Part shown: positions 5,884 to 63,910 of the stretch, piece after piece | How positions within the stretch are numbered: the stretch's first letter is position 1 | How the letters are laid out: each line of letters opens with the position of its first letter | Assembly: GCA_965238265.1 (NCBI GenBank) | Contig: OZ250185.1 | Coordinates: 1,949,255 to 2,013,254, forward strand | Source: Chloroflexota bacterium | GTDB lineage: Bacteria > Chloroflexota > UBA11872 > UBA12225 > JAJDUF01 | DNA: 64,000 nt | Direction: 5' to 3' | Notes under the pieces: generated by a model | What the model was told of the DNA's origin: nothing | Seen by the model: only the letters and a program-made list of their open reading frames with translations | Database searches by the model: none | Translations under genes and position numbers: made by a program

Positions 5884-5908
5884 GTCATTGCGGCGCAAGC
5901 CGCAATCC
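5884..5908. repeat. dRS3-like palindromic repeat (gtcattgcggcgcaagccgcaatcc), one member of a multi-copy family
   Basis: The inverted repeat tcattgcggc / gccgcaatcc was seen directly. Related copies occur at 11176, 17177, 30197, 40476, 40519, 59228 and 63821. Confidence 0.8.
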
Positions 5909-5985
5909 AGTACCGAGGGCCTGGACTGCGGCTGCTGCCGCAGTGACGAGACGGGAACCCTTTTACGCCATCACCCGGCGGGTCA

Positions 5986-6384
5986 TTAGCCGCAGTACCG
6001 GAACATGGAGAGCGGCCCATTCCTCGACGGATAGATGAGGGTTTCTTCTCTGGCACCTCCTCTTCCCAGGTCAAAGGAAAGGTCGGCGAGGCGAAGGTCG
6101 GAAAGGAATCCCCCCTCAATGTCGGTGATGCTCCCGCTCTCGATTCTTCGGGAAAGCTGGCGCGCCAGGTATTGCGCTAGGGAGGTATGTTGGCCTACAC
6201 CGAGACCACCTATTGGCCAGCCTTTGTCCCGCCGAATCTCTGGAGCGCGACGGTCAAATTCAATGGCCAATTGGTATGCCGTCAGGAAGGGGCGGCCGAG
6301 GTGGTGCCCGGGTGGGTTAGATTCGAGGCCTCCGAGAATCTCCCTGACGTGGTTTTCAACATGGTAGTCTTCCCAATCACTCAT
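5986..6384 (-). CDS. hypothetical protein in a lower-GC patch. It occupies the position downstream of prfA where prmC is often found.
   Basis: It is a 132-aa ORF with a TAA stop and a local GC content visibly lower than flanking DNA. No recognisable motifs were found. Confidence 0.45.
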   Translation of the reverse strand: MSDWEDYHVENHVREILGGLESNPPGHHLGRPFLTAYQLAIEFDRRAPEIRRDKGWPIGGLGVGQHTSLAQYLARQLSRRIESGSITDIEGGFLSDLRLADLSFDLGRGGAREETLIYPSRNGPLSMFRYCG

Positions 6385-6452
6385 TCCGTCCTCCAGTCAA
6401 CTGGCTGATGCGACTGTGGTGCAGGGCGGCAATCTCACGACGGGCCAAGGCG

Positions 6453-7538
6453 CTACCCGACGGCGGCGAGGCGCTCGGCTTGGTCCGCTTGAGCGAGCGC
6501 AGCGATGAGGTCATCGAGGGTGCCGTCGAGGATACTCGGCAGATTACTCGTCGTCAGGCGGACGCGGTGATCGGTCACGCGATCCTGAGGAAAGTTGTAG
6601 GTCCGGATCTTCTCGTTGCGGTCCCCGCTGCCGATCTGCGAGCGGCGGGCATCGCCGCGCGCCGCCGCCGCCTGGCGCCGCTGCTGATCGAGCAGGCGAG
6701 CACGCAATACGGCGAGCGCCTTCAGCCGGTTCTTCAGCTGCGAGCGCTCGTCTTGACAGGTCACTACCATGCTGGTGGGCCGATGGGTAATCCGTACCGC
6801 TGAATCGGTGGTATTCACGCTCTGACCGCCATGGCCTGACGAGCGGTACGTCTCGAAGATGAGGTCCTCGGGGTCAATCTGGACCTCCACCGCCTCCGCG
6901 ACCGGCAGCACGGCCACCGTGGTCGTGGATGTATGAATGCGCCCGCTGGCTTCCGTCGTCGGTACGCGCTGGACCCGATGCACACCGCTCTCATACTTGA
7001 GCTGGCTGTAGACACCGCGCCCATTCACTTGGAAGATGGCCTCTTTATGGCCACCGATCCCGGTTTCGTTGAGGTTCACAAGGTCAACCTTCCAGCGCCG
7101 GCGCTCGGCAAAGCGGACGTACATGCGGTAAAGCTCCGCTGCGAACAGCGCCGCCTCCTCGCCACCCGCACCGGCCCTGATCTCCACGATGACGGCCCGT
7201 TCGTCGTTAGGATCGGGGGGGAGCATGGCCAGCCGCAGGTCGTGGGTCACCTGCTCCACACGCTCCTCCAGCACCGCAATCTCGTCGCTTGCCAACTCAG
7301 ACAGCTCCGGGTCATCCGACTCGGCCAACACCGACCGTGCCCCCGCCAGCTCCTCATCGAGGCGACGCAGGTCACGGTATAGCGAGACGGTCTTCTCCAG
7401 ACGGCTCTGCTCTTGGCCGTATTCGCGCAGCAGCTTCGGGTTGGTGATGGTTTCGGGCGCAACAAGGAGGTCCCCAAGCTCTGCGTAGCGGGATTGTAGC
7501 TGGTCCAACTGATTAATCATGGCTACCGTTGGCGGCAT
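6453..7538 (-). CDS. prfA: peptide chain release factor 1
   Basis: The GGQ motif (SSGHGGQSVNTTDSAVRITHRPTS) is present, and the RF1-type tripeptide anticodon region (RVQRVPTTEASGRIHTS) identifies it as RF1 rather than RF2. Confidence 0.95.
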   Translation of the reverse strand: MPPTVAMINQLDQLQSRYAELGDLLVAPETITNPKLLREYGQEQSRLEKTVSLYRDLRRLDEELAGARSVLAESDDPELSELASDEIAVLEERVEQVTHDLRLAMLPPDPNDERAVIVEIRAGAGGEEAALFAAELYRMYVRFAERRRWKVDLVNLNETGIGGHKEAIFQVNGRGVYSQLKYESGVHRVQRVPTTEASGRIHTSTTTVAVLPVAEAVEVQIDPEDLIFETYRSSGHGGQSVNTTDSAVRITHRPTSMVVTCQDERSQLKNRLKALAVLRARLLDQQRRQAAAARGDARRSQIGSGDRNEKIRTYNFPQDRVTDHRVRLTTSNLPSILDGTLDDLIAALAQADQAERLAAVG

Positions 7539-7598
7539 GTGTACCTCGCTTAAGAAGTGAAGCCCCTGACCGGGAGTGCGTGCGTAAGGCTGGAGCTA

Positions 7599-8615
<1,017 letters not shown>

Positions 8616-8712
8616 CTGTGGCCGTCCTATGGCCGTTCTGTCTGCTGTGGCCGTCCTACCTACCCAAAGCGTACTCGCCGCCCGCGCCTCCTGGCGTACT
8701 ACTCACTACGTC

Positions 8713-8746
8713 AAAAGAAGGTAGAGCCGGATCAACCCTACCTTCT
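8713..8746 (-). terminator. rho-independent terminator-like hairpin following rpmE
   Basis: On the minus strand, a 9-bp stem (agaaggtag ... ctaccttct) is followed by a TTTTGACG stretch. Confidence 0.5.
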
Positions 8747-8767
8747 CCTATGGTGAACGTCGGTGTG

Positions 8768-9040
8768 CTAACCGGCGCTGGCGGTGGCCTCGTTTGCCTC
8801 GACCGCGGCTGTATCGTCGCCCGCGCCGGGCACCTCCGATGCCAAACCAAAGCGGCGATGAAAGCGCTCGACTTGACCGGCCGAATCGACGATGCGCTGC
8901 TGGCCCGTGAAGAAGGGGTGGCAAGTTGAGCACAGCTCCACCCTGATCTCCGGCCGTGTCGAGCCTGTCGTCCAAGTGTTGCCGCAGGAGCAAATGACCT
9001 TCGCGTCGTCATAGTAGCGCGGATGGATGTCCGATTTCAC
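8768..9040 (-). CDS. rpmE: 50S ribosomal protein L31, Zn-ribbon (C+) form
   Basis: The sequence VKSDIHPRYYDDAKVICSCGNTWTTGSTRPEIRVELCSTCHPFFTG carries a CxC...CxxC motif. Start was taken at the GTG (VKSDIHP); the track ORF extends further upstream, to 9085. Confidence 0.9.
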   Translation of the reverse strand: MKSDIHPRYYDDAKVICSCGNTWTTGSTRPEIRVELCSTCHPFFTGQQRIVDSAGQVERFHRRFGLASEVPGAGDDTAAVEANEATASAG

Positions 9041-9204
9041 GCTGATTACCTTTCGTCTGCGCCTCCCCGGCGATACTGTTGACACGCCAGGTATGGATTT
9101 ACCATGGTAAGTATATCACCGACCGACCGGCGCAAGCAGCCGTCAGCTATCAGCTTGCAACGGTGGCAGGAGCCACCCACGGGCTGACGGCTGATAGCTG
9201 ACGG

Positions 9205-9999
9205 CTACCGGGGCGGGGTGAGCCGGTGCAGGTCAACGACGAGCCGCTGTCCGAGACCGGCAAACGGCACGGACTGGACGGCATCGCTCCAACCGGCCTC
9301 ACGCAGCAGCGCCACGAAGAGGCCGCCGGCCTCGCGTCGTGGCTCGGCCAGCCAGAGCCATCCGCCCGGACCGAGCAGCCGGGGAACGAGCGCGGCGAGT
9401 GGTGCTACGTCGCGCTGCTCGTACAGCACGTCGGCCGCCAGGACCACGTCGTAGGGCGGCTCCAGCCACGCGCAGGGGTCGGGGCCACGCCAGCTGCCCA
9501 GCTTTGTGACGAGCGAGACGCCGGCCAGCGTCTGGACATTGTAGGCGGCGAACGCCAGGGCATCCGGCTCGCAATCCACGGCCAGCAGATCGGCGCCCGC
9601 GACGAGCGCCGCCGCGGCGGTCAGTCCCAGACCACAGCCCAGCTCCAGCACACGCTGCCCAGCGAGGGCATCGGCCGTCAGAACGGCCTCGGCGAGCACC
9701 TGCCCGGCGGGCCAGAGCTGCGCCCAATAGGGCAGCCGGTCGTCGTCGTTGGGCAGGATGGAGTCAATGAGCGAGTCGGGATCGGCTAGCCCCAGCACGG
9801 CCCACGAGCGACCGCCTACCTGCACCGGTGTTTGGCCCAGCCGGTAGCGCGCGGCGAGCCGGTCGCGCAGCGGAGCCGCACCGTATACTGCTGTCTCGGC
9901 TGAGGCCTCTGCGCGTCGCCCTGGAGCGGGAAGCGGCTCCGGCTTACCAGGGCGGCCCCACAGTCCGCGGCGGCGCCGTGCCGCCTGCCGGCTACGCAT
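9205..9999 (-). CDS. class I SAM-dependent methyltransferase (Methyltransf_16-like)
   Basis: Motif I (VLELGCGLGL), a post-I acidic residue (AVDCEPD) and the segment LEPPYDVVLAADVLYE are present. This is not the NPPY motif of HemK. Confidence 0.65.
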   Translation of the reverse strand: MRSRQAARRRRGLWGRPGKPEPLPAPGRRAEASAETAVYGAAPLRDRLAARYRLGQTPVQVGGRSWAVLGLADPDSLIDSILPNDDDRLPYWAQLWPAGQVLAEAVLTADALAGQRVLELGCGLGLTAAAALVAGADLLAVDCEPDALAFAAYNVQTLAGVSLVTKLGSWRGPDPCAWLEPPYDVVLAADVLYEQRDVAPLAALVPRLLGPGGWLWLAEPRREAGGLFVALLREAGWSDAVQSVPFAGLGQRLVVDLHRLTPPR

Positions 10000-10035
10000 T
10001 GCTCATCCTAGCCGGCCAGAGCTTCCTGTACCGAG

Positions 10036-11127
10036 GTGCTCGGAAGTAGCTCTGGCCCCGCTACCATGCTGTCTATGACCATCCAACCGCCACCATCCAT
10101 CAGCCTCGCGCCGTCGCGCCTCCGGCGTGTACACGCCGGCTTGCTGCGCTGGTATCAGGAGCAAGGCCGCCGCCTTCCCTGGCGGCAGACACGCGACCCC
10201 TATGCCATCCTAGTCGCCGAGATGATGCTCCAGCAAACGCAGGTGGACCGCGTGGTGCCCAAATACGCGGCGTTTCTGGCTACGTTTCCCACGATTGCTG
10301 CGCTGGCCGCGGCTTCGCGCGGCGAGGTGATCCGCCACTGGGCCGGGCTGGGTTACAACCGGCGAGCTGTGCATCTGCACCGGATTGCCCAGCAGGTGGT
10401 AGCGAACCATGACGGTAAGCTCCCGACCGACCCGGCCACCCTCCGGACCTTGCCGGGCATCGGCCGCTACACGGCCGCGGCCGTCGCCTGCTTCGCAGCG
10501 GAAGCGCCGGTGCCGGTGTTGGACACCAACGTCCGCCGCGTGCTGGGACGGGTCTTTCTGGATACCTGGCTCGATGACGACGGCCGGACGGAGCCGCCCC
10601 CTGAGCACACCGGTTGGCTTCTGGCCGAGGCCGCGTTGCCGCCTCAGACTGCCTACGCCTGGAACCAAGCGCTCATGGACCTCGGTGCGACCGTCTGTAC
10701 CGCCGCGCGTCCGGCGTGTCGCGTGTGCCCCCTCGCTCCGGTATGCGCCTATCGCCAACGGCTATTGGCAACCACCGAGCTAGGCCCGCTGTTCGGTGGT
10801 GCGGGCGCCGAAACGCCGGCGCGCCAGGCAGCAGAGGAATCCGGGTCATACCGAGCCGGCGCGTCAAAGGCCGAGCCGTTCGAGGGCAGTCGCCGCTGGT
10901 ACCGCGGGCGCATCCTGGCCAGCCTACGCACGCTGCCGCGCGGGGAGACGGTCGCTCTGGCCCGGCTCGGTCCGCAGCTCCGGGCGGACTTTGCGCGCGA
11001 CCACATAGGATGGCTCGCCGACCTCCTCCTAGCCCTGGCCGATGATGGGCTAGTGGAGTGCCGCGGGGGCCTGCGCGGCGCCGACACCGACGCGCTAGGG
11101 GACGTTGAGGTTGCGCTACCGGCCTAG
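10036..11127 (+). CDS. mutY: A/G-specific adenine DNA glycosylase
   Basis: The HhH-GPD domain (LPGIGRYTAAAVACFA ... VLDTNVRRVLGRVF), a 4Fe-4S cysteine cluster (CTAARPACRVCPLAPVCAY) and a C-terminal NUDIX-like domain are all present. Confidence 0.9.
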   Translation: MLGSSSGPATMLSMTIQPPPSISLAPSRLRRVHAGLLRWYQEQGRRLPWRQTRDPYAILVAEMMLQQTQVDRVVPKYAAFLATFPTIAALAAASRGEVIRHWAGLGYNRRAVHLHRIAQQVVANHDGKLPTDPATLRTLPGIGRYTAAAVACFAAEAPVPVLDTNVRRVLGRVFLDTWLDDDGRTEPPPEHTGWLLAEAALPPQTAYAWNQALMDLGATVCTAARPACRVCPLAPVCAYRQRLLATTELGPLFGGAGAETPARQAAEESGSYRAGASKAEPFEGSRRWYRGRILASLRTLPRGETVALARLGPQLRADFARDHIGWLADLLLALADDGLVECRGGLRGADTDALGDVEVALPA

Positions 11128-11175
11128 GAGTGGCCAGTGGTCATTGGCACCACGCCATGAAAATAACCGCTATCC

Positions 11176-11199
11176 GTCATTCCCGCGTGCGCGGGAATC
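11176..11199. repeat. dRS3-like palindromic repeat (gtcattcccgcgtgcgcgggaatc)
   Basis: The inverted repeat tcattcccgcg / cgcgggaat was seen directly. Confidence 0.8.
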
Positions 11200-11292
11200 T
11201 AGGGCGGGGTACCGGCGCCGGAAATGGGCCTGTGATATAGTCCTATACTCACTATGCTCTGGTGACCCGGCGGCGCAGAGTGCGGGCGCTAG

Positions 11293-11368
11293 GCCGAGAT
11301 AGCTCAGTTGGTAGAGCACGTGACTGAAAATCACGGTGTCGGCAGTTCGATTCTGCCTCTCGGCACCA
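11293..11368 (+). tRNA. tRNA-Phe (anticodon GAA)
   Basis: The cloverleaf was read by hand: acceptor stem GCCGAGA / TCTCGGC, D-arm GCTCAGTTGGTAGAGC, anticodon loop CTGAAAA, T-arm GGCAGTTCGATTCTGCC, discriminator A and a genomically encoded CCA. It closely resembles E. coli tRNA-Phe. Confidence 0.92.
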
Positions 11369-11386
11369 TTTCCCCAAGTAAGCGCT

Positions 11387-11420
11387 GGCCTCTGCGATAG
11401 ATAGCAGAGGCCGTTTGATT
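11387..11420 (+). terminator. rho-independent terminator-like hairpin after tRNA-Phe
   Basis: A 9-bp stem (ggcctctgc ... gcagaggcc) with loop gatagata is followed by gtttgatt. Confidence 0.6.
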
Positions 11421-11652
11421 CTCGTTGACGGTCGCGTACATACCCTCCTCACTGCGGTGCAGTGTGTCTGGAGGTGAGCTTATGCCGCAGCCGCAGTCAA
11501 TGCCCCTCTTCCACGCGCAGGCATCGCCGTCCAGCCTTCGCGATGGTATGTGTCGGGTTGATGTCGGTCTCCGTTGTTCCGATCAACACGAGACTTCAAC
11601 TTGCCTGACTATCCGGAATCGCAGTTGAGAGCTAAGGAGCACATAGAAAATC

Positions 11653-14600
11653 ATGAACCGCAGCGGGCAGAACATTGTTGTCGGGGCTCTCGTCCAATGG
11701 ACAGGCGCGAAAACATACGGGGTAGTCACCAACATTGATGACGGGGTAATCCATGTCCGATGGGATGAAGCAGGTCTCCCACCCCAATTTGCGGTCAGGA
11801 ACGCCCCGCTACTGCGGATTGAAGTGGGAGGTGAAGTTGTCCAACGGAGATCGACCGGGGAGATTGCAGCTGTCCAAGGCCCGGTGGACGTGGAGCCACC
11901 AACCTGGCAGTGCGTCATCACCGGTTCTGGTAGTCCAGTTAGAGCCAACGTGCCGGAGGCAGACCTGCGCCCCATACCTATCACCGATCCCGTTGACTGA
12001 TTCGAGGCGAGCCACATTGGCTCACTCCGGCAGTATCGTCTCCAGGAGGTCACACGGTGGTACCGGGCGCTGCATCTTCACAACGATCTCGTGTCCCTCG
12101 GAAATGCTCGGGTGGATATTAAGCCCCATCAAGTGGGGGTTGTGCATAGAGTAGTAACCAACTACCCTCACCGCTTCCTGTTATGCGATGAGGTTGGTTT
12201 GGGAAAGACGATTGAAGCAGGGATGGCACTTAAGGAACTCCGGACCAAAGGCGGTGCCCAGCGGGTTCTAGTCATTGTTCCGCCTAACCTGGTTCGTCAG
12301 TGGCAGTTCGAGATGAAGACGAAGTTCAATGAGATTTTCTCAGTGCTGGACACCAACACTGTCCAGTTTTTGAGGAATCAAGGCCAGGTGGGTAATCCCT
12401 TCACCTACTCGGACAGTGTTCTATGTTCCGCAGCATGGGTTGCCCATCCGAAATGGGCGAAGTTGTGCGCCGAGGTGGACTGGGACCTCGTCATCGTAGA
12501 TGAGGCCCACCACGCCCGGAGCCGTCGTTCCGGAAACCGGGTCCAGACAACGCGCCTCTACCGGTTGGTCAGAGATCTGACGACACCGGAGCATATCACC
12601 CGAAGGGGAATGCTCTTCCTTACCGCAACGCCAATGCAGCTTGATACCCATGAACTCTATTCCCTGGTAGAGCTCCTTGACCCCGCACTCTTCCCTTCAG
12701 AGAAACACTTCGAACAGCACCTTCAAGCGGTGCCCGGCCTTTCTCAACTTGTCGAGCGCCTCCACATGCACGGATTCCCGTTCCCGGAAGAGGATCCTGA
12801 CGAAACGGTCGAGCAGGTTTCCGAGTGGCTTGGTTTGGGTGTGGATATAGCGCGCCAGCGGCTCTCTGCCGGAGAAGAGGCGCGGGAGGCACTTGCCAAC
12901 GAGTTGGCCGATCATCACCTCCTCAGTGAAGTGTTGATTCGGAACCGCAAGGCTGTGGTGGGCGGATTCATGCCTCGTGTAGCCCATCGTTGGGAGGTTG
13001 ACTTAACACCCGAAGAACGCGCGGCGTTGCGAGCCGTAGAGGATTACGTCCAGTATGGATTTCAACTTGCCGAGGGTGCCAACAACAGCGCTGTGGGATT
13101 CGTTATGGTCATTTTTCAGAAGTTGATGGCATCCAGCATTGCTGCCATCAGGGAGTCGTTAGGCAGGCGCAGGCAGAAAATCCGAACTGCCCTCGCAAGC
13201 CCGCAGTCGTCTGCGGGTGCTACTCAACTAGAGGAGAGACTGGATGATGACGACAATGCGGGTGATGTCGTCGAGATCCCCGGCGTCGCGGCTGACATGG
13301 TGAACGAGGAGCTATTCCTGCTAGACCGAGCCATCAACACCCTTGACCTAGTGAACCGCGACTCCAAATCTTGCGTACTTGTCGAGCGGCTAGCCGAGTT
13401 GTTCGATGAGCACCCTGACGAGAAGGTGCTCGTATTCACTCAGTTCCGCGAGACCCAGAGACATTTGGGAGAACTGCTCACTGCCAGAGGTTGGGGTGTT
13501 AACGTCTTTCATGGTCAAATGAAGCCTGGAGACAAGGACGACGCAGTGGAAGGTTTTAGGAACGGTGTGGGGCCCCAAGTGCTCATAAGCACCGAGGCTG
13601 GTGGTGAGGGTCGGAACTTCCAATTCTGCCACCTGCTCGTCAACTACGATCTGCCGTGGAATCCTATGCGAGTCGAACAGCGTATCGGTCGAGTGGATCG
13701 TATCGGCCAGGACCATACGGTCAGTATCTTCAACCTCTGGGTCAAAGACACCATAGAGGAGCGCGTTCTCGACGTGCTGGAGAATCGAATTAGAGTGTTC
13801 GAGGAAACCGTAGGGGGTCTTGATCCTATCCTCGGCGAGGCCGAGAACGACATACGGAAAATCATGCGTATTGCTGATGAAGAACGGGAAAAGCCCTTGA
13901 GGAGTTTGGCAAGCAGTTGGAAGGGCAGGTCCGCCGCGCCCGGGATGCAGAGGGGAAACTTGGCGACTTCATCATGGACACGAAGTCTTACCGGCGACAA
14001 CTCGCCGAGCGCATCGCCGGGCAGCCTTCACCGATCAACAATGATGATCTTGATAGGTTTATAAGAGAGCTTCTCGCCAGTGTACGCACCTACATCAAGC
14101 GAAATGGTGATTTTTATGAGCTGACCTTCCATGGCGAAATTCTTGACACCTTAAGGACACATTTCGCCGGCGGACCCAAGCGAAAGGCGGTGTTCCGACC
14201 TGACCGCCGTCCCGACTCGGATGATGTCGAGTTTGCGGCATTCGGCCATCCGATCGTGGACGCAATAGTTACACAAGTACTTGATGAGGGCTACGAGGGA
14301 GTGACAGGCACCCGCCGCATTCCTGCTGGCGACGATCTCGCCCCCCAGTCTGGATGGCTCTTCACCTACCAGTTCACTATCCCTGGTCCGCAGTCCACCG
14401 AACGTCTCGTGCCGGTCTTCATGCACGACAATGGTGAAGTGGATGTGGAGACAGGACACCACATCGTGCAACGTGCCTATCGGTTTGACAGGAATGAGCA
14501 GGAGATGCACCCTTCCGAGATTCCCGACAACCTCCGCGAGATTGAGCCACAGGCGAATCGGTTTGCCAATGCCGAGAGGGAAGCGGCCCAGCAGCAGGCT

Positions 14601-14915
14601 GAGACTCAGGCCGCCGAGCGTTTCAACCGGGAAATCGCTCGTCTTGAGGCATGGTTCGACTATCGGGAACGCGCCGCCAGTGACCGTGTGGAGGCTACCA
14701 GCGCTACCCTGAATCGACTCCGCGAGAGCGATGACGAGTCGCAGCGCCAAATTTTGCCCGTCTGGGAGGCTAATCTCCGACGGGACAAGGAACTGCTCGG
14801 TAATCTCACCGAAGAGCGTCGCCGCCGGATTGATGAAGCTGAGAGATATCGTCACCCTCAAGTCGATTGGGTGCTGAAGTCGCTGGGCCGCATTGAGGTG
14901 GTGGCTCCCAACTAA
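11653..14915 (+). pseudogene. rapA: RapA/HepA-like SNF2-family ATPase (RNA-polymerase-associated protein homologue). It is disrupted by an in-frame TGA at 11998-12000 and by a frameshift near 13886-13893. It lies in a lower-GC islet directly 3' of tRNA-Phe.
   Basis: ORF 11653..12000 has a tandem Tudor/KOW-like N-terminal domain (VGALVQWTGAKTYGVVTNIDDGVIHVRWDE) comparable to the E. coli RapA N-terminal domain. After the TGA the same frame continues into the ATPase core: [37 protein letters not shown] (compare E. coli RapA [37 protein letters not shown]), a DEAH box (LVIVDEAHHARS) and helicase-C motifs (QRIGRVDRIGQ). The C-terminal 330 aa continue in a different frame (ORF 13917..14915) after the homopolymeric run gggaaaag. 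Confidence 0.8.
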
Positions 14916-14999
14916 CGGGACTCGGCGGCCTGACGCTTTCACTACCCGACCCGGCGGATAGCTTCCCATCCTCTGCTGCGGCGAGTTGGCCGCGCTTGC

Positions 15000-15668
15000 T
15001 CATTCTGCCGCCATGGTCGGTGCCGACCGTGCCCACCGGATGGCAGCGGCGATAAAGAACAGGCCCATGGCCACGAGAAACGCGCCAGCGAGACCGACAA
15101 CGAACCGGTAGACCTCAGCGTCGAAGAGCTGCTGTCCGGCGATGAGGAGCAATGCGATCAGCACGTACCAACCGAAGTCGGCCGCGATATGGCCAATATA
15201 AAAGGCGCCCAGTGCCAGGTTCCCGCCGCGGTGGAGCGCCAAGGCCGTGTAGCTGGCGCCGACCGTTGCCCACCAGAGCACCCAATAGGGATTACTCACG
15301 CTCACGACGATGCCCGTGAGAATAGGCAGGGCCGCAGCCGGGGCGGCTTGCGCCTCGCCAAGGTGAACGGCGCCAGTCCAGGCGGCCCGCGCAAGATCGG
15401 CTCCCAACACGATCAGGGCGATGCCACCGAGCGCCGCAATCGTCCGCAGGACCGTAGGGTGTCGGATCGCCCGTGCCAGCCCCCGGGCCAGGGCCAGCAC
15501 CACGAGCAGTTCGAGCAAGGCGTGTCCGAGCACGAGCAGCGGCGCCGCCCAGAATCCGGTGCGGGCGACATCGCCGATCACCGCTGTGAGTAGGGGTCCC
15601 GGTGCGACGGCGCCGGACAAGCCTACGAGCAGTGAGGTGGCGAAAAGGCCCCAGGTAGCTCTCATCAT
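15000..15668 (-). CDS. LysE/RhtB-family amino-acid exporter
   Basis: It is about 220 aa with six TM segments and an N-terminus typical of LysE-type translocators. Confidence 0.65.
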   Translation of the reverse strand: MMRATWGLFATSLLVGLSGAVAPGPLLTAVIGDVARTGFWAAPLLVLGHALLELLVVLALARGLARAIRHPTVLRTIAALGGIALIVLGADLARAAWTGAVHLGEAQAAPAAALPILTGIVVSVSNPYWVLWWATVGASYTALALHRGGNLALGAFYIGHIAADFGWYVLIALLLIAGQQLFDAEVYRFVVGLAGAFLVAMGLFFIAAAIRWARSAPTMAAE

Positions 15669-15699
15669 TCGTCTGCTATCGTCCCTCGCCGTTGGGTGT

Positions 15700-15860
15700 G
15701 CCGACGCATCAGGCGACGGCCCGTCCCATCGTCACTCCGGCGAAAGCCGGAGTCCAGTAGCCGGGGGAGGTGGATTCCGGCTTGCGCCGGCACGACGGCC
15801 TCCCTATGGCCCCCCCGCTGCGGCAGGGGGACGGCGCTTCCCTCCCCGCCACACCACTAT
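15700..15860. repeat. mosaic intergenic repeat element, composed of a tcactccggcgaaagccggagtcc hairpin, a ggtggattccggcttgcgccgg hairpin and a G-rich module (cccccccgctgcggcagggggacggcgcttccctcccc)
   Basis: The same modules recur at 18600-18690, 31818-31868, 56190-56240 (reverse-complement orientation) and 63850-63910. Confidence 0.75.
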
Positions 15861-15943
15861 CCTGTCTATCCTGCTCATCCATGTTTGAGTCGTGGTGGCT
15901 GCTAGAATGGCCGCGCCGCCTTGTCCCATAAGGAGGTAGCACA

Positions 15944-17131
15944 TTGACGAGCAATGATCCGCTGCGTATCGCCGTAGTCGGCTGTGGGGGGATGGCTGGC
16001 TCCCATCTTCGCGCGTACCGCGAGCTGGCGCAGAAAGCGCCGGGCCTCATCACGGTGAGCGCGACGTGCGACGTGGACGAGGCCCGCGCTCGCCGCGCCG
16101 CTGCCGAGGTTGCCGAGTTCCAGGCGCAGGCGCCGCGTGTCTATACCGACTACCGGCAGCTCCTCGACGAGCACCGACCACCAGCGGTTGACCTGATCGT
16201 GCCGCATAATGTCCACCACACCCTCGTAGTCGAGGCCTTCGACGCTGGCGCCCACGTGCTGCTGGAAAAGCCGCTCGCCGTCAGTATTGCCGCCGGCCGG
16301 CGGCTCTTGGCGGCGCACGAACGGGCGTGTGAGCGGTCGCCCCTCGTCCTGGCAGTGGCCGAACAGTACCGGCGCACACCGGAGGCCCGGGTGACTTGCT
16401 GGGCAATCCGGGATGCGGGCCTCATCGGTGAGCCGCGGATGATCTTCTCACAACGAGTAAATCTCAGCATAGGCCTGATCGTCGGGACTGCCTGGCGCCA
16501 CGACCGCCTCCTATCCGGCGGTGGTTGGGTGCTCGACGGCGAGGTACATACGTTCGACCTCTTTCACAATATGTTCGGTCGTATTGCCGAGGTCTATGCC
16601 GCGGTACGGACCTTCGAGCCGACCCGCTACGCAGACCCGCAGACACTCAGCGGCCCCACGCCCTCCGACGTTGAGGACGCCGCGATGGCCGTGTTGACCT
16701 TCGAGAGCGGGCTGTTGGCCAACTTCACCTGGACCCAGGCTGCCCCGGGAAAGGCGTTCCAGCGGCGCCGCTACTATGGCAGCGACGGCTCACTGGACCA
16801 GGATGGCTTGCACCGGCGCGATGGCACTACCTTGGGCATTGCCGAGGTGCAAGAGCAGTTCCTAGAGTTGCTCACCCCGGAGCAGAAGGAGACATTATTT
16901 CCCTACGACACCCGAGACCCGGTCCTAGTAGAAATCGTGGATTTCGTCCGCGCCGTGCGTGATGGCACCGTGCCGGAGGTAGACGGCCACGAGGCGTTAG
17001 CGGCGATGGCAGTGAGCGAGGCTCTGTACGAGTCGGCCCATGCGGGTACGCCGGTCAAGGTAGCCGATGTCCAAGCCGGCCGCGTCCGGGCAGCGCAGCG
17101 TGACATTGACGCGCACTGGGGCTTGCTGTAG
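15944..17131 (+). CDS. Gfo/Idh/MocA-family NAD(P)-dependent oxidoreductase
   Basis: An N-terminal Rossmann fold (LRIAVVGCGGMAGSHLRAY) is present, and the length and C-terminal domain are typical of the family. Confidence 0.8.
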   Translation: MTSNDPLRIAVVGCGGMAGSHLRAYRELAQKAPGLITVSATCDVDEARARRAAAEVAEFQAQAPRVYTDYRQLLDEHRPPAVDLIVPHNVHHTLVVEAFDAGAHVLLEKPLAVSIAAGRRLLAAHERACERSPLVLAVAEQYRRTPEARVTCWAIRDAGLIGEPRMIFSQRVNLSIGLIVGTAWRHDRLLSGGGWVLDGEVHTFDLFHNMFGRIAEVYAAVRTFEPTRYADPQTLSGPTPSDVEDAAMAVLTFESGLLANFTWTQAAPGKAFQRRRYYGSDGSLDQDGLHRRDGTTLGIAEVQEQFLELLTPEQKETLFPYDTRDPVLVEIVDFVRAVRDGTVPEVDGHEALAAMAVSEALYESAHAGTPVKVADVQAGRVRAAQRDIDAHWGLL

Positions 17132-17176
17132 CCCAGCATGGTAGTACCACTGATCTAGGCTCTGTTGACATTCCTC

Positions 17177-17261
17177 GGTCATTCCCGCTTGCGCGGGAAT
17201 CCAGGGCGGGCGCGATGGCTACGGCCCCAGGTGCCTGGATTCCGGCCTCCGCCGGAATGAC
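17177..17261. repeat. composite repeat made of two dRS3-like hairpins in opposite orientation (ggtcattcccgcttgcgcgggaatcc ... ggattccggcctccgccggaatgac)
   Basis: Seen directly. The architecture resembles the elements at 59228-59302 and 40476-40582. Confidence 0.8.
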
Positions 17262-17305
17262 GGGAGGGGACACCATGAATGACACTCCTACCTGGTGGTC
17301 AGGTG

Positions 17306-18463
17306 CTAACTACCCCCGGCCTCGTGGAGGAGCCGGTGGAGCTTGGCAGCGCTGCGCTCCCATGTGAACCGCGCTGCTTGTGCCGTCCCGCGCTCGATAA
17401 GCGTGGCGCGTAGCTCCGAGTCGCCGAGACAGCGAGACAGTGCATCGGCTAAGGCTGCTATGTCGGTTGGCTCCACCAACAGCCCGGCGTCGCCGACCAC
17501 TTCCGGTAGAGACGACACCCCCGAGGCCACGACGGGACAACGACAGGCCATCGCTTCGACACAGGGCAGGCCAAAGCCTTCATAGAGCGAGGGGTAGGCC
17601 AGCGCGACCGCTCCGGCGTACAGCAGACGCAGCTCGCTGTCGTCAGCGTCCTCGATCAGCCGGAACGAGTCGGTCATCTCGTGGTCTTGCACCGCCCGCT
17701 GCACCTCGGCATAGAGCCAGCCACGGCGACCGGCATGGACGAGCAAGACGTCTTCGCCGGTCTGCTCGCGTAGCAGGCGCACGGCCGCGATCAGTCGGGG
17801 CAGGTTCTTGCGCGGCTGTACCGTGCCTACCGAGAGGACGTAGGGACGGTCGAGTCTGCGCCGGCGGCGCATCGCTCCCAGAGCGGCAGGGTCGTCCACC
17901 GGCCCGAAGATCGGATCGGCGGCCGAGAGGAGGACGGCAGTCTTTTCCGCCGGTACTCCCAGGAGTGCCATGGTGTCTTGGCGCGTGTGCTCCGAGTCGG
18001 TGAGTACCAACGCGGCGGCCCGCACGGCCCGTGGCACCGCCGCTGTGAGGAAGGCGACCAAGCCGGGATCGTGCGTCTCCGGATAGTGCAGGAATGAGAG
18101 GTCGTGGATCGTGACAACCCCCCGCGCGCGTAGCAGCGGCGGGAGCACGAAGTTCGGCGAGTAAAACACCGCGCTGCCGGGGGCGCAGAGGTCAGCCCAG
18201 AGGGGTACTCGCCAGCGATGCCACAAGACGTTCAGCAGGCGCTCCGGGACGGGCAAGCGCCGCAGGGCTACCGTGCCCTCCGTCCCCGGCTCTACGTGTG
18301 GCGTCAAGGAGTCTCGCAGTGACGGGGGGACGGCCCCCGCATACAGCAAGGTGTAACTGTCGCCCGCTGCGGTGTGAATGAGCGCCTGGACCAGGGATCG
18401 GGTGTAGCGACCGACCCCGGCAGCCTGCCGCACGGCTGGGGTGTAGTCAATAGCGATCTTCAC
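17306..18463 (-). CDS. glycosyltransferase family 4 (GT-B fold, group 1)
   Basis: C-terminal GT4 motifs are present (LYAGAVALAYPSLYEGFGLPCVEAMACRCPVVAS). Start was taken at the GTG of VKIAIDYT; the track ORF extends 70 codons further into a repeat region. Confidence 0.8.
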   Translation of the reverse strand: MKIAIDYTPAVRQAAGVGRYTRSLVQALIHTAAGDSYTLLYAGAVPPSLRDSLTPHVEPGTEGTVALRRLPVPERLLNVLWHRWRVPLWADLCAPGSAVFYSPNFVLPPLLRARGVVTIHDLSFLHYPETHDPGLVAFLTAAVPRAVRAAALVLTDSEHTRQDTMALLGVPAEKTAVLLSAADPIFGPVDDPAALGAMRRRRRLDRPYVLSVGTVQPRKNLPRLIAAVRLLREQTGEDVLLVHAGRRGWLYAEVQRAVQDHEMTDSFRLIEDADDSELRLLYAGAVALAYPSLYEGFGLPCVEAMACRCPVVASGVSSLPEVVGDAGLLVEPTDIAALADALSRCLGDSELRATLIERGTAQAARFTWERSAAKLHRLLHEAGGS

Positions 18464-18718
18464 GATGCATTGTCTCGTACACGAGTCTCCGGCTCCCAGG
18501 GGCGGTGCCGGATAAGCAAGGGGCGATGTGAGCCACAGAGCACACGGAGCGCACAGAGGATAGCAGCCCCGGACAAGCGCCCGTCCCCTGTGGCTTGCCA
18601 TGGGTGGGACCGCCCCCCTATGGTCCTCCCGCTGTGCAGGGGGACGGTGCTTCCCTCCCCTGTGCGTCAGCACGGGGGAGGGCCAGGGTGGGGGCCACTA
18701 ACCACTCGCCACACGCCC

Positions 18719-19702
18719 CTACTTCGTGTGCTTGCTGATGAGGAAGACGGGCAGCCCGGTCACGATTAAGCCCCAGAAGCTAATCGAGCGATCCACCAAC
18801 GCCACGCCGAGGGCCACCTCCGGCGCGACACTGAACAGTGCCAGCACCCCTACCATGCCGGTCTCGACAGCGCCCAAGCCGCCCGGAGTCGGGACGACGA
18901 GCAGCAGCGAGGCGGCAGTCAGGACGAAGAGTACCGGCCCGATGGACAGCGGCACGTGGAGCGCATGGAGCACGAAGAACAGACGGCCGGCCTCCGCCAG
19001 CCACGCGAGGAGGGTGAGCGTGCTGACAACGGGCAGGTCCTGAAACGAATGGAAGACACCGTGCTCGAAGCGCGAATAGTAGGCTTGGATCCGCGCGCTG
19101 AAGAAGCCGATGACGCGCGGGCCACCGTACCGCAGGGCCAGCACGCCGGCGATGAGGATGAAGAGGACGACGGACGCGAGCAGCGCTAATTGCGCCAGCT
19201 CGGTGCCCACGCGGCCCCGCAACACCAGCAGCCCACTCAGCGCCAACAAGAGGACGAGCACCAGCACGTCAATGACCCGCTCCGCAAACACGGTACCCAT
19301 CGCGCGCGAGAACGACACGCGGTCGGTGCGCTTGAGGAGATAGCCTCGATATGCGTCGCCAAGCTTCAGCGGAGCGATACTGTTGACAAACCAGGAGAGG
19401 TAGATAATCTCAGTCAGCCGCGCCACGGACAAGTAGGGGTGCCCTACGTTGCCCAGCAGCCGGCGCCAGCGCAGCCCCCGCACCGGGAACGTGCAGATAT
19501 ACGAGCCAATCGCCAGCAGATAGAACCAGGGGTTGGCGTTGGTGATGCTCGCCCAGGTGGCATCGAGATTCACGTCGGCAGCGCGGATGACCACGACCAG
19601 GACTGCCAGCCCGACGACGAAGGAAAGAGCCGTGCGGACGTTCAGCAGCCGACGCGCCCAGCTAGTGGATTCGTCGGCCGGCGCTTTGGTTTCTGAGGTC
19701 AC
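18719..19702 (-). CDS. flippase-like / lysylphosphatidylglycerol-synthase-TM-domain (PF03706-like) integral membrane protein
   Basis: The polytopic membrane domain begins WARRLLNVRTALSFVVGLAVLVVVI. Start was assigned to the GTG whose codons overlap the upstream gene's stop (GTGA). The track ORF's 160-aa N-terminal extension overlaps the neighbouring gene and is low-complexity. Confidence 0.6.
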   Translation of the reverse strand: MTSETKAPADESTSWARRLLNVRTALSFVVGLAVLVVVIRAADVNLDATWASITNANPWFYLLAIGSYICTFPVRGLRWRRLLGNVGHPYLSVARLTEIIYLSWFVNSIAPLKLGDAYRGYLLKRTDRVSFSRAMGTVFAERVIDVLVLVLLLALSGLLVLRGRVGTELAQLALLASVVLFILIAGVLALRYGGPRVIGFFSARIQAYYSRFEHGVFHSFQDLPVVSTLTLLAWLAEAGRLFFVLHALHVPLSIGPVLFVLTAASLLLVVPTPGGLGAVETGMVGVLALFSVAPEVALGVALVDRSISFWGLIVTGLPVFLISKHTK

Positions 19703-30054: not shown

Positions 30055-30196
30055 TGGCGCACCTCATATAGATTCTATAGCACGGCCTGCCGTCCGGTGT
30101 CCGCCTCACCCCCGGGGCCCTCTCCATCGCCAAGCGATAGAGAGGGGGAGTCTGCCGGAGACGGGCAGGGGTGGAAGGGTAGCCCGCGCGCCGCCC

Positions 30197-31868: not shown

Positions 31869-31880
31869 CGGGAAATTAAC

Positions 31881-40582: not shown

Positions 40583-40633
40583 GGGCGGCGCGGCATATTG
40601 ACATCCCGTTGACATCGCAGGGAGGCAAAGTAC

Positions 40634-41911: not shown

Positions 41912-42018
41912 CCGCCGGCCACTTTGCTCCTCACATCCCGGCCCCTCTCCACTTGTGGAGAGGGGGAGTCCGCTGCAAGCGGGCGGGGTGAGGAGCGCCC
42001 CGACACGGCACGACGCCG

Positions 42019-45091: not shown

Positions 45092-45216
45092 CGCGCCGCG
45101 CCTCACCCCCTGGCCCTTCCCCTGACCAGGGTAGGTGCGGGCGGCATCGTAGGGGCGTCCCTTGTGGGCGCCCTCATCCCGGCCCTCTCCCGCTGGGAAA
45201 GGGGGAGGCCGCCGGA

Positions 45217-48289: not shown

Positions 48290-48540
48290 CTTCCTTTCTC
48301 ACCAGGGCTGCTGGTAGGGACGCAGCACGCTGCGCCCTGACGCATGACCCGGCGGTCGCCCCCTTCCCCAGCGGGAGAGGGCTAGGGTAGGGATGAGACA
48401 GGTTGGACCTAACCCCCGGCCCCTTCCCTCCAGGGAAGGGGAGTCCGCGCAACGATCAGCCGCCCCTTCCCTTCAGGGAGGGGGTTGGGAGTAGGTGCGC
48501 CTCTCCACACGAAAACCTGCCCCTATGAGCTCTTTATCCT
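48290..48540. repeat. intergenic cluster, about 250 bp, of GC-rich hairpin modules (gcgcagcacgctgcgc; cccttccccagcgggagaggg; ccccttccctccagggaagggg; cccttcccttcagggagggg; cctctccacacgaaaacc)
   Basis: Seen directly. Related modules occur at 39490-39600, 41930-41990, 45095-45215 and 46270-46330. Confidence 0.7.
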
Positions 48541-56143: not shown

Positions 56144-56266
56144 ACAGTCTTCTCCAAAGCCCCCACCCTAACCCTCCCCCGTTGCGACAGGGGAGGGAAG
56201 CGCCGTCCCCCTGCCGCAGCGGGGGGACCATAGGGGGCCCGGCCTCTCTGCGACCGGATCACGGCA

Positions 56267-58138: not shown

Positions 58139-58139
58139 G

Positions 58140-59165: not shown

Positions 59166-59227
59166 GGCCGCGCCATTTCCCCGTTATTGCTCTGAAAATA
59201 GCCCCATCCGCCACGCCCGCCCTATCC

Positions 59228-59302
59228 GTCATTCCCGCGTAAGCGGGAATCCAGGGCCGGCACGCCGGCTGCGGCCCTTGGCCTGGATTTCGCCGGAATG
59301 AC
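59228..59302. repeat. composite repeat: the dRS3-like hairpin gtcattcccgcgtaagcgggaatcc, followed by the half-element ggatttcgccggaatgac
   Basis: Seen directly. Confidence 0.8.
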
Positions 59303-59318
59303 GCAATCGGATACCGTC

Positions 59319-62218: not shown

Positions 62219-62300
62219 CCCACTAGGCTGCGGGGTAGCTGGTGGGTGGTGGATTTCGCCGCAATGACGGGTCTGGGTGGCGGCCACTCACCACTCACCA

Positions 62301-63740
62301 CTAGCCACTGATCAGGGCGCTCGCGGGCACCTGCACGACACTGCTGGCCCCCCGGTCGAGCATGAAGAGCGTCCCCTGGCTGTCTACGGCCAGCGCGGTG
62401 ACGCGGAAGAACTGTCCGGGGCCGTAGCGAGCCGACTGGCGCTGCGCGAGCAGCTGGCCCTCTGCCGAGTATTTCGCAACCCACTTCTCGCTAGTGACGT
62501 AGACGTTCCCCGCGGCGTCGGTGGCGACGGCGGTCGGAGCGACCGGCTCGGTCTGCGGGTCGAGCGGGTCGGTGTTGATCTCCCAATGTAGGAGCGGGTG
62601 GCCGCTCGGCGAGAACTTCTGGATGCGGTTGTTGCCGCTGTCCGCGACATAGATGTTGCCCGCGGCGTCGAGCGCTAGGTCCCGGGGCCAGAGCAGCTGG
62701 CCGGGGTCGGAGCCTTGGCCGCCCCACACTGCCAGCGGTTCGCCGGTGGGGGATAGCTTCTGGACCCGATGTCCCCAGTACTCGGCGACGTACAGGTTAC
62801 CGTGCGTATCCACCGCCACCGCCGTCGGATGATCGAACTGCCCCGGTTCCCGCCCGTAGGCCCCCCATTGCGCCAGCGGCTGCCCGGTTGGCGAGAGCTT
62901 CTGGACCCGGTGGCCCCAATAATCGGCGACGTAGATGTGGCCCTGGGCATCCACGGCGACGCTTCTGGGGCCGCGGAATTGCCCCGGCCCATCGCCGCTT
63001 GTCCCCCACACCGCGAGCGGTTGGCCGGCAACTGAGAGCTTCTGGATGCGGTCGTTATCGTAGTCCGCGACGTAGACGTGTCCGGCTGCGTCTACCGCGA
63101 TTCCCCGTGGGTCGTCGAACTCGCCCGGAGTGTCTCCGAACTCGCCCCAAGCTAGGGTCGGGCCGGTCACCAGCGGGAGCGCAGCGCGGTGCAGGCTCGT
63201 CACTCCCAGCCCGAATTCCCGCTCCCAAGCGGCCGGTTCATAGACCAGGGCGCCGTAGTTGCGCCAGCCGATGCCGAACAGTTCAAGGTCGGCGACCGAC
63301 TGGATGTGCAGCAGCCGGGGCACGGCGTCGGCGCTGGGCCATTGCACGAGGTAGAGCAAGGCGCCGTCCTTTAGCAGCCCGGCCGAGAGCCAAGGATCGC
63401 CACGCCGCAAGTCTTGAAGCTCCGACAGGGTGACTTCCGTCCGGTTCTCCCAGTTGACCTGCCGTCCGGCCAGGGCACGAGTGTCACCTACCCAGTGCAG
63501 GGTCTCATCGTCGTCGGCGACCCAGAGGTGTGGCGTGCCCTGGAGGGAGACGACCGCGCCAGCGGTGAGTGCCGGCTCGTGGGCTACATCGGCCCATACG
63601 GCCGGCACAGGCGCCAGACTGATGCTCAACAACGTCAGTAACCCGACGATCACGCTGAGACCGCGCCGGTTAGCCGGCATACTGAGCCTGGGGCCGGTCG
63701 AGCGTGTGCCGCGGCGGTAGGAGCGCATGATGTTCCTCAC
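62301..63740 (-). CDS. NHL-repeat (six-bladed beta-propeller) protein with an N-terminal signal/anchor
   Basis: Motifs of the form YVAD(Y/S)xNxRIQK(L/F)S recur six times. Confidence 0.85.
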   Translation of the reverse strand: MRNIMRSYRRGTRSTGPRLSMPANRRGLSVIVGLLTLLSISLAPVPAVWADVAHEPALTAGAVVSLQGTPHLWVADDDETLHWVGDTRALAGRQVNWENRTEVTLSELQDLRRGDPWLSAGLLKDGALLYLVQWPSADAVPRLLHIQSVADLELFGIGWRNYGALVYEPAAWEREFGLGVTSLHRAALPLVTGPTLAWGEFGDTPGEFDDPRGIAVDAAGHVYVADYDNDRIQKLSVAGQPLAVWGTSGDGPGQFRGPRSVAVDAQGHIYVADYWGHRVQKLSPTGQPLAQWGAYGREPGQFDHPTAVAVDTHGNLYVAEYWGHRVQKLSPTGEPLAVWGGQGSDPGQLLWPRDLALDAAGNIYVADSGNNRIQKFSPSGHPLLHWEINTDPLDPQTEPVAPTAVATDAAGNVYVTSEKWVAKYSAEGQLLAQRQSARYGPGQFFRVTALAVDSQGTLFMLDRGASSVVQVPASALISG

Positions 63741-63820
63741 CCCTCAGGATTATGGCGGGCGGCGAGCGTGCCGTAAAGCAGATGTTCTTGCTGTCATCGG
63801 CACGAAAATAACACCCATCC

Positions 63821-63910
63821 GTCATTGCGGCGGAAGCCGCAATCCACGTTCCCCTGCGGAGCGGGGGGCATAGGGGGCCGTCATTCCCGCGCACGCGGGA
63901 AGGTGGATTC
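63821..63910. repeat. mosaic repeat: the dRS3-like hairpin gtcattgcggcggaagccgcaatcc, the G-rich module cccctgcggagcggggggcataggggg, and an imperfect gtcattcccgcgcacgcgggaaggtggattc hairpin
   Basis: Seen directly. Confidence 0.8.

Follow-up and report, generated by a model that had tools for sequence, protein, structure and literature searches.

Bacterial repetitive extragenic palindromes (REPs) have been split into two superfamilies, one tagged with GTAG and the other with CGTC (Di Nocera et al. 2013, PMC3733652). In the CGTC-1 family, an unpaired tag (CGTC, sometimes TGTC or CCTC) precedes a stem of 8 bp whose first two positions are complementary A-T residues, and a loop of 4 nt and an unpaired CCA tail complete the element. 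Most dimers are head-to-head, their tags facing out, tail-to-tail dimers are rare, and in Neisseria the family is known as dRS3 (PMC3733652). The same survey recorded CGTC repeats in Proteobacteria, Chlorobi, Bacteroidetes, Spirochaetes and Thermotogae, and only GTAG repeats in Chloroflexi. Here we analyze a 64,000-nt stretch of a Chloroflexota genome (contig OZ250185.1, positions 1,949,255 to 2,013,254; hereafter the window), whose intergenic spacers carry short hairpin repeats that we call modules (a) to (d). Module (a), our main subject, is on sequence grounds a CGTC-1 REP, the same element as Neisseria dRS3 and, in its oriented form, as the motif named NTS or SRM.

Two kinds of enzyme have been discussed for such repeats. 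In the species surveyed by Di Nocera et al., genes for REP-associated tyrosine transposases (RAYTs) were flanked by GTAG repeats or long terminal inverted repeats, never by CGTC repeats, and the authors proposed that the CGTC families may be nearing extinction without a dedicated enzyme (PMC3733652). Chenal et al. 2025 (PMC11893778) have since described SsnA, a 94-aa GIY-YIG protein that binds NTS only as single-stranded DNA (ssDNA), its cut falling a few nucleotides upstream. Cleavage depends on the three bases ahead of the palindrome, and binding on the C that directly follows it; SsnA loses its activity when the palindrome is altered even if the hairpin is preserved, and RNA is not acted on (PMC11893778). 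SsnA homologues across bacteria are flanked by such motifs, and SsnA is encoded in 81% of genomes with more than 200 SRMs, 19% of SRM-rich genomes being without it; the main text of that paper does not mention Chloroflexota. A further class of repeat, the BoxC/PIT/TMECO intrastrand-triplex motif, has been linked to variable loci, and in E. coli the BoxC/PIT elements did not act as terminators (Holder et al. 2015, PMC4666352).

The window holds 17 copies of module (a) (Table 1), about one per 3.8 kb: 13 intact, one degenerate, two without the 3' arm and one cut by an IS30-family insertion sequence (IS). All 17 fall within the non-coding part, which as scored here makes up 11.4% of the window. 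The 13 full copies were recovered by their outer anchors alone, with the inner stem left free and no pairing required, and a covariance model built from them retrieved the other four (15771-15797, 59284-59303, 62250-62269 and 63879-63901). A preliminary description of this DNA had listed 14 sites; 12 of these are hairpins and two, at 59285 and 62251, are remnants lacking the 3' arm, the site placed at 15718 belongs at 15730, and three copies had been missed (5922-5948, 15771-15797 and 63879-63901). Its expectation that the motif exceeds what base composition predicts holds within the window, where an exact search for ATTCCSGC-N3-8-GCSGGAAT gave 7 matches against 0.00 expected in 100 dinucleotide shuffles.

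Aligned copies give the consensus cCGTC-ATTCCsGC-gaaa-GCsGGAAT-CCAgg. The tag reads CGTC in 10 of the 13 intact copies, GGTC in two and CATC in one. The stem is 8 bp long and paired in 103 of 104 cells, its first pair being A-T throughout (13/13) and its second T-A in 11 copies and C-G in two; the loop measures 4 nt in all copies except one of 5 nt, and the tail is CCA in 12 and CTA in one. Module (a) shows every defining feature of CGTC-1 that could be tested. The likeness to the Neisseria dRS3 core, recognized from the start, extends to the whole oriented 28-nt NTS (CGTCATTCCCGCGMAVGCGGGAATCYRG): 30196-30223 has 0 mismatches and 59227-59254 has one, the other copies differing in the loop or in the stem variant. 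The exact 30-mer is also present in N. gonorrhoeae and Azospirillum records, and the same 28-30-nt site is found in Neisseria, Azospirillum and this Chloroflexota. Five copies fit the strict dRS3 pattern ATTCCC-N8-GGGAAT exactly (11179, 17181, 30200, 31846 and 59231), and the CCGGC and GCGGC variants do not.

The stem varies in a compensated manner. Three of the eight pairs change on both arms (UA/CG, CG/GC and GC/CG), and the covariation score was reached by none of 500 shuffles. Window copies had been found partly via pairing, and covariation was retested on loci of other organisms collected with patterns that made no demand for complementarity. Among 223 metagenome copies, 214 had Watson-Crick bases at all five inner pairs, as did 174 of 184 from viral contigs, and mixed arms such as CCGGC/GCGGG were almost absent. 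Since the inner pairs are Watson-Crick also in copies gathered in this way, the compensatory change is real, as had been proposed. The accompanying proposal that selection acts on structure rather than on primary sequence stands for the compensated stem but not for the rest, which is nearly invariant: the tag positions G, T, C, A, five stem positions per arm and the tail positions T, C, C, A hardly change among the 13 copies. Because there are only a few discrete variant classes and little of the sequence varies, sequence and shape are constrained together. One of these classes, GCGGC/GCCGC, occurs in three window copies and in three copies from related genomes (L121-L126, from six uncultured Chloroflexota), and we class it as a lineage-specific, fully compensated stem variant.

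Two further features concern subsets of the copies. Those at 59284-59303 and 62250-62269 share an identical 3'-arm deletion (CGTCATTSCGGCGAAA^TCCA) despite their different stem variants, and neither can fold; this form was not seen in ~240 loci of other organisms, and it may reflect recurrent slippage across the hairpin, from the AA of the loop to the AA of the arm. A conserved 5' extension, yGAAAATArC-N7-9, precedes the tag of some copies (11158-11174, 59193-59226 and 63803-63819, and also in L121 and L122) and is almost absent upstream of copies in other organisms (1/221 and 1/180).

Close pairs of module (a) comprise five head-to-head dimers, no tail-to-tail dimer and two tandem pairs, with gaps of 16-45 nt between opposite-strand copies, and a sixth head-to-head dimer is intact in a strain of the same species (L333, 99.86% identical). 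This agrees with the earlier remark that inverted pairing makes the repeats resemble miniature elements, and the head-to-head bias is suggestive only, because the cases are few and close pairs occur in all orientations in the loci of other organisms. Dimers 17177-17262 and 59227-59303 share their spacer as well (83% over 53 nt), and therefore the dimer appears to have been copied as a unit.

Elsewhere, the same outward-tagged geometry encloses a gene. An NTS, a gene for a ~95-aa PF01541 GIY-YIG protein and an inverted NTS form a cassette in loci L048, L111, L003 and L330-L332 and in 95 of 119 metagenome loci, the last figure not being an independent estimate because the search pattern, NTS and then part of the GIY motif, included a piece of the gene. 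Gene-less dimers beside such cassettes recall how REPINs relate to RAYT genes. None of the 119 metagenome loci carried module (b) or the GCGGC stem, and none could be assigned to this lineage because none had lineage markers. The NTS-flanked nucleases have a mean column identity of 68%, in hosts of 43-74% G+C. A protein database search with an SsnA alignment returned at least 8000 clusters, with Nitrospirota, Planctomycetota, Syntrophales and Proteobacteria among the names in the matches listed; two long-contig matches come from genomes of ~57% GC. In L330 and L331, from a metagenome genome of ~58% GC, the NTS-flanked ssnA lies between the substrate-binding-protein and permease genes of a peptide-type ABC transporter operon. 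A viral contig (L011, ~10680-10800) contains a tandem array of the NTS left half (CCCATCCGTCATTCCCGCTT) with a 20-nt period.

We compared the window with relatives at two distances. MutY of the window is 78-88% identical to that of the six uncultured Chloroflexota metagenome-assembled genomes (next best matches ~50%), and 21 kb are syntenic with these six, at ~70-95% nucleotide identity per block and mostly 80-90%. MutY and synteny thus put the window in Chloroflexota and not, as the dRS3 core had at first suggested, in a high-GC relative of Neisseria. Same-species contigs, at 99.5-99.9% identity, were found in ENA assemblies. The syntenic comparison that the preliminary description had called for shows that orthologous spacers of the six relatives, in genomes ~85-90% identical, carry different modules or none. 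For instance, the spacer between mutY and tRNA-Phe is orthologous in seven genomes and differs in its module set. The window and L122 have a CCCGC copy there (with one mismatch in L122), L123 has a GCGGC copy, L121 combines module (b) and a dimer, L126 contains only module (b), and L125 has both (c) and (b). Ahead of prfA, the length of the spacer varies across genomes from 20 nt to ~890 nt.

The convergent genes at 17131 and 17306 enclose a spacer that is a hot spot for insertions. In the window it is 174 nt long and contains a dimer; in L122 and L124, which lack the whole ~165-nt insert holding the 17177-17262 dimer, it measures ~10 nt. A candidate target-site duplication of 6-7 nt (CAGCATG / CAGGTG) at 17132-17305, seen against L122 and L124, was rejected as too weak, and the ~165-nt insert exceeds the dimer. 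In L121 the same spacer holds a 2.1-kb insert (13780-15810), probably a restriction-modification cassette, in which small ORFs (open reading frames) precede a DNA methyltransferase-like ORF of 407 aa; in L126 it holds a 2.2-kb insert (13334-15565) whose right end encodes a C-terminus matching the L121 ORF.

The end of the window records an insertion into module (a) itself. The sequence leaves that of L333 exactly within the copy at 63879-63901, after GCGGGAA and before GGTGGATTCACATTGG, and the minus strand of its final 99 nt codes for the C-terminus of an IS30-family transposase (...NHTPRKCLGDRTPAEVF...). The breakpoint and this C-terminus together show that the IS inserted in the 3' arm of the hairpin; at the same site L333 has the intact head-to-head dimer, followed by a gene for a thiamine pyrophosphate (TPP) enzyme.

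We hold it to be fairly probable that an Ssn-type ssDNA nuclease recognizes module (a) as its hairpin target and that the family spread mainly as dimers. Modeled on the characterized systems of Neisseria, N. elongata, N. wadsworthii and Wolbachia, the tagged strand would fold into the module (a) hairpin when the DNA becomes single-stranded. A ~95-aa single-domain GIY-YIG Ssn nuclease, encoded elsewhere in the genome, would bind the hairpin by its sequence and shape and nick a few nucleotides upstream of the CGTC tag, and through such nicking the repeats would mark single-strand cleavage sites during foreign-DNA uptake, replication or repair. They may also be a selfish or domesticated population, spreading mainly as head-to-head dimers. 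Taking the 81% SsnA share among SRM-rich genomes (PMC11893778) as the prior for the presence of the nuclease, we infer that this genome encodes an Ssn enzyme that would cleave or mobilize the copies. The candidate functions offered earlier had left out this GIY-YIG single-strand DNase, the experimentally shown partner (PMC11893778).

Several observations pull the other way, the mixed pair orientations in other organisms among them. No GIY-YIG gene was found in the window, in L121-L126 or within ~9 kb past the window ends in same-species contigs, out of a ~4.3-Mb genome; the window and L121-L126 were searched with a six-frame regular expression and by tblastn, the queries being a YhbQ sequence and an NTS-flanked GIY-YIG ORF. 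The GCGGC/GCCGC stem is absent from 407 copies in other loci and from 2.9 million viral contigs, and no tested Ssn has been shown to accept it. The degenerate SRM pattern of Chenal et al., in our own regular-expression version, catches 3 of the 13 copies plus two unrelated matches, missing most through its demand for A/T at one position of the loop. Only 13 of the 17 copies are intact, the others being one cut by the IS and three that are decayed or lack an arm, and no copy was gained or lost over ~33 kb between strains at 99.5-99.9% identity; given this stability and the four non-intact copies, the family may be inactive now.

These last points bear on the main rival, which we consider unlikely: that module (a) is a relic of a past expansion whose dedicated enzyme was lost, decaying passively and exerting effects only via recombination, slippage and IS insertion. 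Extinction of enzyme-less CGTC families was proposed by Di Nocera et al. (PMC3733652), SsnA is missing from the 19% of SRM-rich genomes mentioned above (PMC11893778), and the window encodes no dedicated nuclease or transposase. Copies are stable between the near-identical strains, and decayed ones are present at 15771, at 40557 and in the two arm-deleted remnants, and also in L122 and L124. However, a perfect or near-perfect stem, tag and tail is kept in 13 of 17 copies. Module (a) also reaches 17 copies per 64 kb here versus 8 per 117 kb in the relatives, a density ~4x theirs in the syntenic region that implies expansion after divergence, and the lineage-specific, fully compensated stem variant likewise speaks against a mere relic.

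A bolder form of the nuclease proposal would have the dimers be non-autonomous mobile elements, gene-less NTS-ssnA-NTS cassettes copied by the GIY-YIG nuclease, the cassette having crossed phyla and module (b) being a second, lineage-specific family of CGTC type with its own Ssn paralogue. We regard this as speculative and doubtful. If true, GIY-YIG nucleases would drive a REPIN-like class of bacterial mobile DNA.

A role in RNA, with the hairpins as terminators, attenuators or stabilizers of mRNA 3' ends, appears quite improbable. Such roles have been proposed for REPs generally in the literature, several copies lie just 3' of genes or between convergent genes (5883, 11175, 17177 and 62250), and T.G pairs occur once in module (a) and strand-consistently in module (b). 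Yet none of the seven module (a) copies in a 14-kb scan (5000-19000) was called terminator-like, the only gene-end call being the one after tRNA-Phe, and all 13 intact copies run on into CCA or CTA and G+C-rich sequence (CCAGG or similar) with no T-run. Orientation is unlinked to transcription, since 30196 (+) lies between minus-strand genes and 40557 (-) between plus-strand genes, and copies 15730 and 59227 lie between divergent genes. SsnA is inactive on RNA (PMC11893778), and BoxC/PIT elements do not terminate transcription in E. coli (PMC4666352). The earlier suggestion of bidirectional terminators thus finds no support, in view of the missing T-tail, of orientation and of the copies in divergent promoter regions.

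We give very little credence to module (a) being a REPIN-type element moved by a RAYT (an IS200/IS605-type tyrosine transposase). Its inverted dimers resemble REPINs, and GTAG-tagged REPs, our module (d), share the same spacers. Against this, RAYT genes in the species surveyed are flanked by GTAG repeats or long terminal inverted repeats, never by CGTC (PMC3733652), what lies between CGTC-tagged repeats in other genomes is the gene for a GIY-YIG nuclease, and among the window ORFs scanned there is no transposase for these repeats and no Y1 transposase (RAYT). The preliminary idea that the repeats are RAYT sites therefore lacks support for module (a), no RAYT association having been recorded for CGTC repeats, but keeps its documented footing for GTAG REPs, here module (d). 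It is just as improbable that the repeats are mainly attachment or target sites for site-specific recombinases or IS: dRS3 is reported as the target of a specific phage recombinase in Neisseria, and the 3' arm of 63879-63901 is interrupted by an IS30-family element at the very place where the 99.86%-identical strain has an intact dimer, but only one of 17 copies is occupied, no recombinase adjoins the others, and the conserved tag, tail and copy number would be left unexplained.

The mosaic of intergenic hairpin-repeat families reported earlier is borne out, with four module classes located in the window. It is not the single system then envisaged: the modules represent four or more repeat classes, each described or describable in its own right, in shared spacers. 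Nor do they occur in nearly every gap longer than 100 bp; about 14 of roughly 22 gaps of at least 100 bp hold them. Module (b) is present in six copies, with 4 exact pattern matches at three sites (one palindromic and matched on both strands) versus 0 expected. All six have the layout CGTC-CCCCTGC-(3-4 nt)-GCGGGGG-(G)(A)CCATAGG, with a CGTC tag in five and CGTT in one, a 7-bp stem (CCCCTGC/GCGGGGG) whose T.G pair is on the tagged strand in every copy, and CCA in the tail of four. Tag, short loop and CCA-type tail are as in the CGTC superfamily, without the A-T first pairs of families 1-4. Module (b) turned up in this lineage only; outside it, viral contigs gave no match and plasmids gave chance-level partial matches only. 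Module (b) is probably a lineage-specific CGTC-type variant.

Module (c) comprises nine full copies and one half copy, in a three-block layout with some loops of up to 13 nt. They were found by a direct pyrimidine/purine hairpin search; stricter triplex-motif regular expressions gave one copy only. We assign module (c) to the BoxC/PIT/TMECO triplex-type motifs. Twice it is fused to module (b) as a ~90-nt composite. Module (d), at four sites (5 pattern matches versus 0.08 expected), consists of a GTAG tag and then a G+C-rich palindrome, the combination that characterizes RAYT-type REPs, and reads as a GTAG-tagged REP. One site, 23807-23834, lies inside an ORF with a Wzy_C O-antigen-ligase domain as its C-terminal part; either this is an in-frame intragenic REP or two genes have been read as one ORF.

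Neighboring modules of unlike class touch each other or share 1-3 bases at 15797, 31818, 31843-31845, 63846/63847 and 63879, as in the series 31795-31818 (d), 31818-31845 (b) and 31843-31869 (a). At these junctions the CGTC tag of one module begins on the last base of the preceding one. The arrangement suggests insertion beside existing repeats or duplication of composites.

Table 1 Copies of modules (a) to (d), in window coordinates
Module	Position	Strand	Details
(a)	5883-5909	+	variant ATTGCGGC; left half of head-to-head dimer; 46.5 bits
(a)	5922-5948	-	variant ACTGCGGC; right half of dimer with 5883; 45.8 bits; dimer fold z = -6.7
(a)	11175-11201	+	variant ATTCCCGC; tail CTA; mutY to tRNA-Phe spacer; 5' extension GAAAATAAC
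(a)	15730-15756	+	variant ACTCCGGC; left half of head-to-head dimer
(a), degenerate	15771-15797	-	CGTCGTGCCGGC...GCCGGAATCCA; right half of dimer with 15730; 25.6 bits
(a)	17177-17203	+	variant ATTCCCGC; tag GGTC; left half of head-to-head heterodimer
(a)	17236-17262	-	variant ATTCCGGC; right half of heterodimer with 17177
(a)	30196-30222	+	0 mismatches to 28-nt Neisseria NTS consensus
(a)	31843-31869	-	variant ATTCCCGC; tag GGTC; tail overlaps module (b) tail
(a)	40475-40501	+	variant ATTCCGGT; T.G closing pair
(a)	40518-40545	+	variant ATTCCGGC; 5-nt loop; left half of head-to-head dimer
(a)	40557-40583	-	one stem mismatch (CCAGC/GCGGG); tag CATC; right half of dimer with 40518
(a)	59227-59253	+	1 mismatch to NTS; left half of heterodimer, copy of 17177-17262; 54.6 bits
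(a), remnant	59284-59303	-	without 3' arm (CGTCATTCCGGCGAAA^TCCA)
(a), remnant	62250-62269	-	same 3'-arm deletion as 59284; GCGGC stem variant
(a)	63820-63846	+	variant ATTGCGGC; 5' extension GAAAATAAC
(a), IS-cut	63879-63901	+	3' arm cut by IS30-family insertion; intact head-to-head dimer in L333
(b)	15797-15833	-	CGTC, CCCCTGC, 3-4 nt loop, GCGGGGG, (G)(A)CCATAGG
(b)	18613-18646	-	fused to module (c) 18653-18694; same composite as 56160-56239
(b)	31818-31845	+	between module (d) and module (a)
(b)	39571-39599	-	
(b)	56204-56239	+	fused to module (c) 56160-56197
(b)	63847-63879	+	tag CGTT; between two module (a) copies
(c)	18653-18694	+	BoxC/PIT/TMECO-type: CCCTCCCC, loop, GGGGGAGGG, CCA, GGGTGGGGG
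(c)	30104-30148	-	
(c), half copy	39526-39547	-	purine blocks only
(c)	41929-41966	-	CCCCCTCTCC ACAAGT GGAGAGGGG CC GGGATGTGAGG; inside larger nested fold, z = -6.75
(c)	45172-45205	-	
(c)	46291-46325	+	
(c), cluster of three	48359-48495		48359-48392 (+), 48408-48441 (-), 48463-48495 (+)
(c)	56160-56197	-	second loop TTA
(d)	23807-23834	.	perfect palindrome GTAGGGGCACGGCATGCTGCGCCCCTAC; GTAG readable on both strands; inside 1107-aa Wzy_C ORF
(d)	31795-31818	+	GTAG plus GGGCGCAGCATGCTGCGCCC
(d)	45149-45173	+	variant GTAGGGGCGTCCCTTGTGGGCGCCC
(d)	48314-48337	+	

The repeats lie among ordinary chromosomal genes, including prfA, mutY, rpmE, tRNA-Phe, ABC transporters, glycosyltransferases, Wzy-type ligases and 2-oxoacid dehydrogenase subunits, and the window averages 65.5% G+C rather than the ~68% first estimated. 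In an Rfam scan of the window the sole match past threshold was tRNA-Phe; weak miRNA-family matches on the 48.4-kb palindromes were rejected as chance. Adjoining tRNA-Phe, a segment of low GC (0.59) at 11369-15000 encodes a SNF2-family helicase (RapA / DISARM DrmD-like matches) and a 332-aa protein of unknown function. The segment was found in only L125 among the six related genomes, its helicase is split by an IS1595-family element in strain L326, and it looks like a small genomic island, possibly related to defense. Near rpmE (L31), the palindrome GTAGGGTTGATCCGGCyCTACCTTCTTTTGACGTAG at 8735-8775 is kept in all six relatives, has no Rfam match and may be a regulatory element. The DNA repeats of 141-nt period at 62592-63110 fall within a gene for an NHL-repeat beta-propeller protein, and their period arises because they encode the protein repeats of the propeller.

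No new kind of element is present here, each module belonging to or neighboring a described class. New are the host phylum, the local density, the lineage-specific stem variant and a candidate extra CGTC-type family, and the CGTC/NTS repeat class is extended to Chloroflexota. Should the genome encode an Ssn nuclease, it would supply a new pair of enzyme and site, possibly with an altered specificity that suits the GCGGC stem or module (b). The practical interest of the Ssn family lies in cutting ssDNA.

Module (c) differs from BoxC/PIT/TMECO in that its blocks vary (CCCCTTCCC, CCCTCCCC), in that it often sits within longer palindromes or is joined to module (b), and in that ordinary hairpin folding is what was computed for it. 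It shares with these motifs the order of a C/T block, a loop, a complementary purine block, a 2-3 nt loop (CC, TC, TT, CCA, TTA or CTA) and a G-rich block, as a comparison of CCCCTCTCC-ACAAGT-GGAGAGGGG-CC-GGGATGTGAGG with the E. coli CCCTCTCCC-TGTG-GGAGAGGG-CCG-GGGTGAGGG illustrates, and it is likewise associated with variable loci. The spacers also resemble NIMEs of Neisseria and BIMEs of E. coli, being built of several repeat families end to end and containing composites duplicated as units, whereas the partner modules differ, and neither the RS elements of NIMEs nor the IHF or L motifs of BIMEs were seen here.

REPINs and RAYTs, that is, the systems of GTAG-tagged REPs, were reportedly described by Nunvar in 2010 and by Bertels and Rainey in 2011. 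The window shares with them an inverted doublet of a tagged hairpin that appears to be the copied unit, together with the GTAG tag and G+C-rich palindrome of module (d); unlike them, module (a) is tagged CGTC, not GTAG, in a superfamily without RAYT association, and no RAYT is present in the window. Measured against NTS and SsnA, the dimers here enclose 16-45 nt and not a gene, and no ssnA was found in the 64 kb or the related loci, while conservation extends to the GTC upstream of the palindrome and to the C behind it, and the NTS-ssnA-NTS geometry is that of the head-to-head dimers. From CGTC-1 REPs, module (a) departs in its Chloroflexota host and in its GCGGC/GCCGC stem, which was not seen elsewhere in the samples, and it agrees with them in tag, stem, loop and tail, in having subfamilies defined by complementary changes, in its mostly head-to-head dimers, in its intergenic location and in the GTAG REPs found alongside.

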